From NCBI GenBank assembly GCA_964447145.1, contig CAYURW010000052.1, forward strand, positions 1 to 18,096: a stretch of DNA of 18,096 nucleotides. Reading direction: 5' to 3'. Under the pieces are notes generated by a model. The model did no database searches. It had not been told where the DNA came from and saw only the letters and a program-made list of their open reading frames with translations. The translations under genes and the position numbers were made by a program. Within the stretch, counting starts at the first letter, position 1; every line of letters starts with the position of its first letter. The stretch comes from an uncultured Clostridiaceae bacterium. Lineage in GTDB: Bacteria; Bacillota; Clostridia; Lutisporales; Lutisporaceae. This document shows positions 4,788 to 5,081 of this stretch, piece after piece.

Positions 4788-5021
4788 AATTTCTCACCTC
4801 ATTTTATTTTAAGCACTATTAGTGCCTGTTTAGCATAAGCTGCTCGGAGCCTCATGGTAAATCCAGACGGGCACAAATTGAGTATGCATTACATCAACCG
4901 GGAAGCCTTATACCTATGGGCTGATATAAAGGCAGGACATATCCTGCACAACATACGGTATCCTCTAATGCTCAAAGTCAAGATTACCTTGCCGAGGCCC
5001 CTACGCAGCTCTGATAAAATT

Positions 5022-5072
5022 ATTACCGTGACAGGGTAATTGGAGGGGATTCGAACCCCGCACCCGAAGGTG
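5022..5072 (-). ncRNA. Second, partial tRNA-like element: UUCG-capped variable-arm-like hairpin, T-arm (GGGG-UUCGAAU-CCCC) and closing hairpin AUUACC-CUGUCAC-GGUAAU
   Basis: Read on the minus strand: CACC-UUCG-GGUG (plus 5061-5072), then C, then the T-arm GGGGUUCGAAUCCCC (plus 5045-5059), then UCCA, then a 6-bp hairpin (plus 5022-5040). There is no partner 5' acceptor strand in linear order and no CCA. It does not fold as a canonical tRNA or as a tmRNA end. Confidence 0.35.
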
Positions 5073-5081
5073 TAACCATAG

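Follow-up and report, generated by a model that had tools for sequence, protein, structure and literature searches.

Is the structured, non-coding stretch that precedes a slipin gene in an uncultured Clostridiaceae bacterium the leader of that gene, or part of an RNA with a role of its own? The stretch occupies positions 4790-5080 of the window studied here, the whole 18,096-nucleotide (nt) segment of contig CAYURW010000052.1 (GenBank assembly GCA_964447145.1); coordinates are window positions throughout, and the RNA elements are read on the minus strand. A sequence-only reading had taken 4790-5080 to be a leader element of the gene, which encodes an SPFH (Band-7) protein. Half of that proposal holds, as the stretch is contiguous with the gene and co-transcription is plausible. 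It does not stand alone, however: we conclude with high confidence that it is the 3' part (two-thirds) of a single, multi-domain RNA of ~470 nt running from about 5256 to 4788. We are equally confident that this large conserved RNA belongs to the Band-7/slipin-associated class of tRNA-like RNAs in RtcB RNA-repair neighbourhoods, and that it is neither a tRNA, nor a member of the YrlA family, nor a terminator-bounded small RNA.

Much of the earlier description was borne out. The UUCG hairpin, the T-arm, the AUUACC/GGUAAU hairpin, the hairpins at 4932-4947 and 4813-4825, and the Shine-Dalgarno (SD) sequence and ATG that it listed are all present on the minus strand; about 230 nt lead from the AUUACC/GGUAAU hairpin to the SD and ATG. 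The 4790-5080 stretch folds more stably than its shuffles (z = -3.24, with 0 of 200 shuffles as stable), and it is GC-richer than its surroundings, as had been claimed, with a G+C content of 0.41-0.48 in the RNA region against 0.21-0.32 in the spacer at 5300-5550. A search of the minus strand from 4788 to 5320 returned no open reading frame (ORF) longer than 32 amino acids (aa), and hence no small ORF that the earlier reading had missed. A 61-aa ORF on the plus strand (4854-5039), antisense to the rod domain described below, is probably spurious, its strand and frame not being conserved. In one homologous locus (L170) the 61-aa ORF called lies on the RNA strand and not antisense.

The slipin family is large, and we compared 79 genome loci, 80 metagenome loci, 10 loci from exact-protein look-ups and 4 viral loci, cited below by L numbers where needed. 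Across the ten closest distinct loci (slipin protein identity 59-87%), which with the window give an alignment of 11 sequences, the upstream region aligns from the TTCGCAnACTTTTTTT motif (5296-5308) to the slipin ATG. This conserved block measures 524-576 nt and shows no protein-coding pattern. The spacer is kept wherever the SPFH gene is, among the loci examined, and conservation runs unbroken to the SD, in agreement with the contiguity noted earlier. The close loci also keep the cassette, in which the RNA and the slipin gene are followed by two convergent WYL genes and often by a divergent rtcB.

Architecture of the RNA

The predicted RNA has four parts: a 5' domain, a permuted tRNA mimic, a second, reduced T-arm module and a 175-nt rod (Table 1). 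The best-supported structure of the region is the rod, which fills what had looked like spacer. RNAalifold, run on raw MAFFT alignments, missed the long-range helices because insertions had misaligned them, and it was replaced by per-sequence folds and covariance models. A first model (R1) was built from six sequences over the core 4855-4989 and recovered 27 sequences, from which a second model (R2) was rebuilt. In alignment A5, made of the 27 sequences from R1, pairing stands at 91.1% and 39 of 41 pairs are compensated; in alignment A6 (69 distinct sequences) 87.5% of cells are paired, against 34-43% when helix partners are shifted along the alignment (slid controls). The 91.1% and 87.5% are inflated by the fitting of both alignments to the covariance model. 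Compensated pairs number 40 of 41 in A6, with 1038 compensated cells against 361 in shuffles. Helix H2 differs in sequence by clade and keeps its complementarity (GGGGCCUC/GAGGCUCC, GGGCUUA/UAAGUCC, AGGGAGUUU/AAACUCCCU and GGUUUUUC/GAAAAGCC). Two side hairpins, H7 and H2a (the latter not in the window), are optional, and in most loci the flanks extend the rod, as suggested by a duplex test that was supportive but noisy (mean z -1.9).

While the helices around the rod's loops vary among the 69 sequences, the loops themselves hardly do. Conservation is 93-100% for GGAUACC, U.AA, CC, the one G in the C-UUUG strand and the base pairs at the loop edges, giving two consensus loops, C-(Y)UUG facing CC and GGAUACC(G) facing (C)UNAA. 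The most conserved bases sit in the rod, which is most likely the place where a partner would bind. This conserved loop core had gone unnoticed in the sequence-only reading, which singled out two perfect hairpins; both exist, and both are peripheral. One of them, H7 (4932-4947), is lacking in L167, L004 and L005 and in many of the more distant sequences. The other, H10, lacks a U-tract, is followed by UUAAAAUAAAAU, which is not terminator-like, and does not take in the SD. Likewise, the UUGACU string that had been pointed out is present, not as a promoter box but as one strand of the conserved helix H4 (CUUGAC/GUC-UGG).

These observations bear on a simpler explanation, in which the region would hold degenerate tRNA pseudogenes and unconstrained spacer, with an intrinsic terminator at 4932-4947 ending a short transcript before the SPFH gene; termination near 4925 had in fact been suggested. 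A terminator scan does flag 4947-4932, tRNA (21.2 bits) and YrlA matches occur below threshold, and relaxed ARAGORN settings give weak tRNA calls in some homologues. We nevertheless consider this explanation highly improbable. The supposed terminator hairpin is missing from many homologues, its U-rich tail is paired, forming the 5' side of the covarying helix H8, the spacer is the compensated rod itself, and conservation does not break off before the SD.

The structure of the 5' half, together with the hairpins of the second module and H10, was specified by hand and counted on the 11-sequence MAFFT alignment, fitted to no model: 94.0% of its pairs are standard, against 31-44% in slid controls, and 19 pairs have changed on both sides. 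In the 5' domain the P4 motif GGUGC...GGUAUNCC recurs in Paenibacillus. The adjoining module, read base by base at 5082-5152, matches tRNA numbering as a circular permutation: the CUGAU strand corresponds to positions 39-43 and is followed by a 5-nt variable loop, a T-arm (49-65), an acceptor strand (66-72) closed by a loop onto 1-7, then U8-A9, the D-arm and the AUCAG strand (27-31). The anticodon loop is thereby opened and replaced. Pairing in the helices of this module reaches 94-100% in the 11 homologues, with a compensated pair in the outer stem. We also noted a candidate tertiary pairing of 3-4 base pairs between NCC (5173-5175, after P4) and GGN in the linker (5075-5077). By eye its variable position covaries in 8 of the 11 sequences (A-U, G-C, U-A, G-U) and fails in L168, L170 and L005; no such pairing was seen in the distant loci.

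Directly 3' of the permuted module lies the second one, made of a D-loop-like strand, a V hairpin, a T-arm and an acceptor-like hairpin, with no D-stem. Compensatory changes among the 11 homologues in this module and in H10, together with those among the 69 rod sequences, uphold the earlier view of a structured RNA with a "second degenerate tRNA-like element", a label that is a fair description of the predicted structure. The linker CUAUGGUUA resembles a stemless D-loop, and AUGGU occurs both in it and as the D-loop of the first module, suggesting that the linker may play a D-loop role. The loop sequence of the V2 hairpin is variable among close homologues. In several distant loci, including L105, L143, L149 and L160, the (A/U)UGG linker, a short hairpin and the second T-arm recur, and a second T-loop stands 60-100 nt past the first in many lineages. 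Because the AS2 sequence of the window is that of the first acceptor hairpin of L073, the second module is apparently a partial duplicate of the first.

Table 1. Positions of the RNA elements, genes and control signals in the window. Helix strands are joined by "with".
Feature	Position	Strand	Basis or remark
5' domain	5161-5256	-	alignment of 11 homologues with pair counts
P1 hairpin	5242-5256	-	part of 5' domain
P2, long-range helix	5228-5241 with 5161-5172	-	encloses P3 and P4
P3 hairpin	5204-5224	-	enclosed by P2
P4 hairpin, GUGCAU...AUGUAU	5176-5202	-	enclosed by P2
Circularly permuted tRNA-like module	5082-5152	-	YrlA match, helix counts
Anticodon-stem strands CUGAU / AUCAG	5148-5152 / 5082-5086	-	one compensated pair
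T-arm 1	5126-5142	-	preceded by 5-nt variable loop
Closed acceptor hairpin	5107-5123	-	followed by U8-A9
D-arm, with AAUGGUA	5088-5102	-	between U8-A9 and AUCAG strand
Linker CUAUGGUUA	5073-5081	-	UGG invariant in 11 close homologues
V2 hairpin CACC-UUCG-GGUG	5061-5072	-	4/4 pairs kept in 11/11; 100% paired, 2 pairs compensated
T-arm 2, GGGG-UUCGAAU-CCCC	5045-5059	-	100% paired, 1 compensated pair (G-C to U-A, 2 sequences)
AS2 hairpin AUUACC-CUGUCAC-GGUAAU, acceptor-like	5022-5040	-	93.9% paired, 4/6 pairs compensated
Rod domain, 175 nt	4837-5011	-	same fold in separate minimum-free-energy folds of all 11 homologues
H1, GAGCUGC/GCAGCUU	5005-5011 with 4837-4843	-	closes rod
H2	4993-5001 with 4846-4854	-	complementary across clades
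H3/H4	4977-4989 with 4856-4868	-	rod helix
Second conserved loop, C-UUUG	4972-4976, opposite CC 4869-4870	-	loop conservation
H5	4965-4971 with 4871-4877	-	rod helix
Internal-loop strand GGAUACC	4957-4963	-	opposite (C)UCAA at 4878-4882
H6	4951-4956 with 4882-4887	-	rod helix
H7, GCAGGA-UAUG-UCCUGC	4932-4947	-	variable side hairpin; sole terminator-scan site on RNA strand
H8	4919-4929 with 4889-4899	-	covarying helix
H9, rod tip	4903-4915	-	rod helix
H10, GCACU-AAU-AGUGC	4813-4825	-	between rod and SD; 92.3% paired, 3/5 pairs compensated (11 homologues)
SD GAGGUGAG / slipin ATG	4793-4800 / 4785-4787	-	sequence, alignment of close homologues
Slipin/SPFH gene, 371 aa	3672-4787	-	sequence, predicted model
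Promoter-upstream motif TTCGCACACTTTT(TTTT)	5296-5308	-	all 11 close homologues, same distance to RNA
Predicted -10 box TAATAT, TGG before	5263-5268	-	begins 40 nt past first base of motif
Second motif copy CTCGCAAACTTTT	1333-1345	-	40 nt upstream of rtcB -10 TATAAT
rtcB	35-1270	-	RtcB Pfam match 3.4e-113; about 3.5 kb from RNA
WYL-WCX regulator-like gene, 413 aa	1396-2637	+	PADLOC WYL 2.3e-10
WYL-WCX regulator-like gene, 329 aa	2646-3635	+	PADLOC WYL 3.4e-13
Hairpin terminator, perfect	5333-5371	-	upstream of RNA promoter
Class II ribonucleotide reductase	5658-8861	-	interrupted by intein with LAGLIDADG endonuclease domain

Relation to known RNAs and occurrence across lineages

No Rfam family matched the window at gathering thresholds. 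In E-value mode the only relevant matches were to YrlA and tRNA, both below threshold, the others being chance hits on the terminator hairpin upstream; neither the rod nor the 5' domain had a match, and no riboswitch or T-box family was found, which agrees with the earlier failure to place the region in a known riboswitch class. The YrlA model (RF02553) matched 5083-5150 at 28.5 bits against a gathering score of 69, over model positions 23-86 of 114, spanning the T-arm, the closed acceptor stem and the D-arm. For the tRNA model (RF00005) the match at 5037-5111 reached 21.2 bits, the gathering score being 29; two acceptor pairs are mismatched and an anticodon arm is missing. ARAGORN found 0 tRNA genes in the window, and its relaxed calls in homologues were discounted as signs of a real tRNA, being weak and inconsistent, with differing anticodons and G-U-rich acceptor stems. 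The Rfam tRNA model does rise above threshold on the equivalent element of L037 (5596-5656), L071 (5550-5606) and L025 (5687-5757). An alternative fold is open to L037, where the first acceptor hairpin can lend its 3' strand as a partner to the 5' strand of the second; the outcome would be a canonical acceptor stem combined with the D-arm and T-arm 2, and hence a possible conformational switch.

The closest precedent for such an RNA is itself a prediction. In their abstract, Burroughs and Aravind 2016 are said to propose a scaffold role for SPFH/Band-7 modules and to name "a novel tRNA-like molecule" as the cognate RNA. As relayed from that study (Nucleic Acids Res 2016;44:8525) by Wang et al. 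(bioRxiv 10.1101/312249), some bacteria encode RtcB beside a Band-7 protein and a predicted "b7a-tRNA", an unvalidated prediction described as strongly tRNA-like; the same account notes that YrlA is occasionally found beside a Band-7 protein. Compared with the b7a-tRNA as so described, the window RNA shares a non-coding element adjoining a Band-7/SPFH gene (it ends at the slipin SD, and likewise in the homologous loci examined), an RtcB gene in the neighbourhood (absent in some homologous loci) and tRNA-like T- and D-arms, here T-arm 1, the D-arm and T-arm 2. It differs from that description in that its tRNA-like part is circularly permuted and makes up ~15% of the 470-nt RNA, and in that it adds the 5' domain, the second T-arm module and the 175-nt rod. 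Beyond the b7a-tRNA prediction, the literature available to us, in part through such second-hand accounts, mentions no slipin-associated RNA. The class thus seems to have been predicted only as a tRNA-like element, and the multi-domain architecture appears to be new, set apart from the b7a-tRNA by a second-hand description of the latter. The apparently new parts are the covarying rod with its invariant loops, the second T-arm module, a shared promoter motif and the WYL pair.

A better-known relative in form is YrlA, a tRNA mimic encoded beside a protein partner and RtcB (PMC4201824; bioRxiv 10.1101/312249), in which Chen et al. (RNA 2014, PMC4201824) described the order V, T-arm, acceptor stem, D-arm (V-T-AS-D) and the Ro60 motif GNCGAAN0-1G. 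The permuted module follows the same order, with a V segment, a T-arm, a closed acceptor stem and a D-arm carried by a stem that stands where the anticodon stem would be, and it too is encoded beside a protein partner, often beside rtcB. In contrast to YrlA, the window RNA is about four times longer, its partner gene is a slipin, no Ro60/TROVE gene occurs in the window, and its stem opens into other domains rather than being closed into a Ro-binding helix. The window RNA lacks the Ro60 motif, as do 9 of 11 homologues, and both hits overlap the T-stem; a TROVE/Ro60 domain is likewise absent from the 17 larger ORFs of the window and from the called genes of the homologous loci.

Other large RNAs offer looser parallels. 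ROOL, GOLLD, OLE, raiA and HEARO are also several hundred nt long and supported by covariation, and some (ROOL, GOLLD) occur in phages, near tRNA genes. The window RNA differs from them in being consistently coupled to one protein gene and in containing tRNA mimics, and it matches none of them in Rfam. The vault particle, which combines a major vault protein with an SPFH-like shoulder, a vault RNA and the TROVE protein TEP1, is a functional analogy only.

With default filters, model R2 matched 32 genome loci and 52 of 80 metagenome loci, and with filters off the core was found in 6 of 7 previously missed loci; the genome-locus matches include Sporomusa, Herbivorax, Melghirimyces and several Paenibacillus. 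The rod stands directly upstream of slipin in Clostridia, Paenibacillus, Sporomusa, relatives of Thermoactinomycetes and a tRNA-rich phage contig, and in every case looked at the match lies on the slipin strand, ahead of the gene. A T-loop of the form GGTTCRANTCC is found upstream of slipin in 132 of the 145 loci with enough flank, mostly 330-410 nt upstream. Paenibacillus leaders keep the same order, with GGUGC...GGUAUNCC, T-arm, closed acceptor and D-arm followed by the GGAUACCG and CU.AA...CCG motifs; here and in L025, a complete anticodon-like hairpin after the D-arm takes the place of the second T-arm. Since the tRNA-like part varies in this way among lineages, the family is modular around a constant rod. 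One lineage, represented by L145 (2177-2977), L146 and L139, carries an additional ORF, roughly 220-266 aa long, between the RNA and slipin. Other lineages have a comparable extension fused to slipin (637-638 aa). Pfam gave no informative match for the intervening ORF of L145 or for the long slipin P0072.

The phage contig (L171, uncultivated virus genome (UViG) 3300007072_000340 of IMG/VR) is a 94-kb viral sequence with 16 tRNA genes at 7-2536, followed by the rod core at 2699-2875 (29.6 bits, with GGAUACCG and CUCAA) and slipin at 2971-4083. The last "tRNA-His" of the array (2464-2536) duplicates an earlier one. This last "tRNA-His" may be the tRNA-like part of the RNA. Given that rod and slipin directly follow the tRNA array, the module would seem tied to tRNA biology in phage-host conflict.

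Such a setting also suits a decoy, or competitive inhibitor, whose modules, lacking a cleavable anticodon loop, would titrate tRNA-directed toxins or defence nucleases. RtcB would meanwhile repair the real tRNAs, and the rod and slipin would do no more than stabilise or localise the decoy. Besides the phage arrangement, the opened and replaced anticodon loop of the permuted module fits this idea, and there is a precedent in YrlA, which according to Hughes et al. 2020 (PMC7790460) is not cut by the anticodon nuclease and may act as a competitive inhibitor. Yet a decoy would leave unexplained why the rod, and not the tRNA-like part, holds the most conserved bases, as well as the tight linkage to slipin, and the window and the homologous loci examined share no conserved gene for a toxin or nuclease near the RNA. 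We regard it as quite unlikely to be the main role.

Promoter, regulon motif and the approach to the slipin gene

Upstream of the RNA, the conserved motif at 5296-5308 is probably an activator site, possibly for the WYL pair. A promoter scan lists TATAGT, which overlaps the predicted TAATAT box, and the predicted transcription start, near 5251-5256, falls at the base of the first hairpin. The rtcB promoter carries the same signal: a motif of 13-16 nt, [T/C]TCGCAnACTTTTTTT, is common to the rtcB and RNA-slipin promoters, at equal spacing to the -10 box. It is duplicated likewise in L083 and L085, and L081 has two copies, which suggests a small regulon. The motif occurs 25 times in 2.9 Mb of loci (both strands), and in 14 close loci the occurrences listed precede the RNA or rtcB. 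Judging from these promoters, the RNA-slipin unit and rtcB would be co-regulated, probably by the WYL pair.

The two WYL genes are adjacent paralogues, divergent from rtcB and convergent with slipin. Beyond PADLOC their assignment draws on weak Pfam WYL/WCX matches and a PafBC hit in PDB with E = 0.055. They stand next to slipin in L081, L083, L085, L086 and L167-L170, even where rtcB is absent, and this PafBC-like pair is a candidate for sensors or activators replacing RtcR.

At the other end of the RNA, one conserved promoter, a terminator hairpin upstream of that promoter and the lack of a conserved terminator before the ATG together bear on how slipin is transcribed. With no conserved signal between the RNA and the slipin ORF, transcription of the two as one unit is the simplest inference. 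The main alternative to the reading preferred below is a cis-regulatory leader, a 470-nt sensor in the slipin 5' untranslated region that might be a riboswitch, T-box-like or a sensor of RNA damage. The RNA would then refold in response to a ligand, to a tRNA that is uncharged or damaged, or to a cut in its tRNA-like module, and so alter the translation of slipin or the stability of its mRNA. In all close homologues the RNA runs without a gap to the SD and ATG, the rod match at genome loci ends about 50-80 nt before the start codon, no conserved terminator intervenes, and near-invariant loops amid variable helices are aptamer-like. The likeness to T-boxes and other leader riboswitches extends to a long, structured, tRNA-related 5' leader that ends near the start of the regulated gene; the window RNA, however, has no T-box sequence, specifier, antiterminator or terminator, and it imitates a tRNA whereas a T-box binds one. 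Nor was an expression platform found, as there is no conserved terminator/antiterminator pair and the SD lies outside H10. Predicted SD accessibility in 46 loci is 0.40 against a leader average of 0.38, a thermodynamic prediction on 500-nt RNAs and as such a weak test. Some lineages (L145) place a further ORF between the RNA and slipin, the tRNA-mimic module is of a kind known from trans-acting Y RNAs, and Rfam gave no riboswitch or T-box match. On balance, we find a regulatory leader conceivable but rather doubtful.

Slipin and the possible role of the RNA

Stomatin, HflK/C and QmcA form large cages. For the slipin of the window, a predicted model (pLDDT, the predicted local distance difference test score, 80) confidently shows a beta domain at the N-terminus, an SPFH domain of stomatin type and a helix. 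On reading its sequence we saw no hydrophobic (membrane) segment, and the protein is predicted to be cytosolic.

Our preferred reading, which we put at slightly better than even (a probability of about 0.55), is that the RNA is the partner or scaffold of slipin, its rod loops docking the protein and its tRNA-shaped modules providing the working surface, with co-expression of RtcB under WYL control. Transcription would begin at the RNA's own activator-type promoter, whose motif is shared with that of rtcB, and would continue through the RNA to the slipin ORF; both promoters are probably under the control of the neighbouring PafBC-like WYL genes. The invariant rod loops would then form a protein docking site, most likely for the co-encoded cytosolic slipin oligomer, by analogy with Ro60 and its Y RNA. 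The tRNA-like elbows would present a tRNA-shaped surface, which could recruit tRNA-handling enzymes such as RtcB or, alternatively, occupy tRNA-directed nucleases, having no cleavable anticodon loop to offer. The RNA may be active as part of the slipin mRNA or as a separate molecule released from it by processing.

Several points weigh against a partner or scaffold. We infer the transcript, its ends, its processing and its contact with slipin from sequence, and a fixed place just upstream of the SD with no terminator suits a cis-acting leader equally well. Slipin yielded no recognised RNA-binding domain. The pairing percentages of the rod are inflated by the fitting noted above, and the overlap with the b7a-tRNA is judged second-hand. 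Finally, rtcB is absent in L081, L086 and L168, which keep the RNA, slipin and the WYL pair, so the link to RtcB is not obligatory.

A far-reaching version of the partner reading, which we hold to be unlikely as a whole, would make slipin and the RNA an unrecognised bacterial and phage ribonucleoprotein. Here a soluble, vault-like SPFH cage would be loaded through the GGAUACC/CUNAA loops, the elbows would capture or mimic tRNAs, damaged tRNAs would be sequestered and handed to RtcB, and the regulon would be switched on by the PafBC-like WYL pair sensing nucleic-acid damage. If the ribonucleoprotein reading were true, the RNA would represent a new class of large functional non-coding RNA across Bacillota and not a leader.

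RtcB repair loci are widespread, and to our knowledge their bacterial substrates and cofactors are largely unknown. Against this background, the tRNA-like piece proves to be only one module of a ~450-470-nt RNA, and a vague prediction becomes a concrete, mutable target with a covariance-supported structure, a signature motif, a predicted promoter, a regulon motif and candidate regulators. The RNA is a candidate for a new Rfam family, and it occurs in cultivable genera (Paenibacillus, Sporomusa, Geosporobacter; carriers include P. ehimensis NBRC 15659, S. acidovorans DSM 3132 and G. ferrireducens) as well as in a tRNA-rich phage.

Further upstream, just past the stop codon of the class II ribonucleotide reductase gene, we observed a strong promoter-like site at 5623-5594 (TTGACA-18-TATTAT with TG). 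Together with the terminator at 5333-5371 it brackets a very A+T-rich unit of ~250 nt with palindromic ATATA repeats. Weak Rfam matches to RefA9 and SpF36 correspond to this terminator hairpin only.

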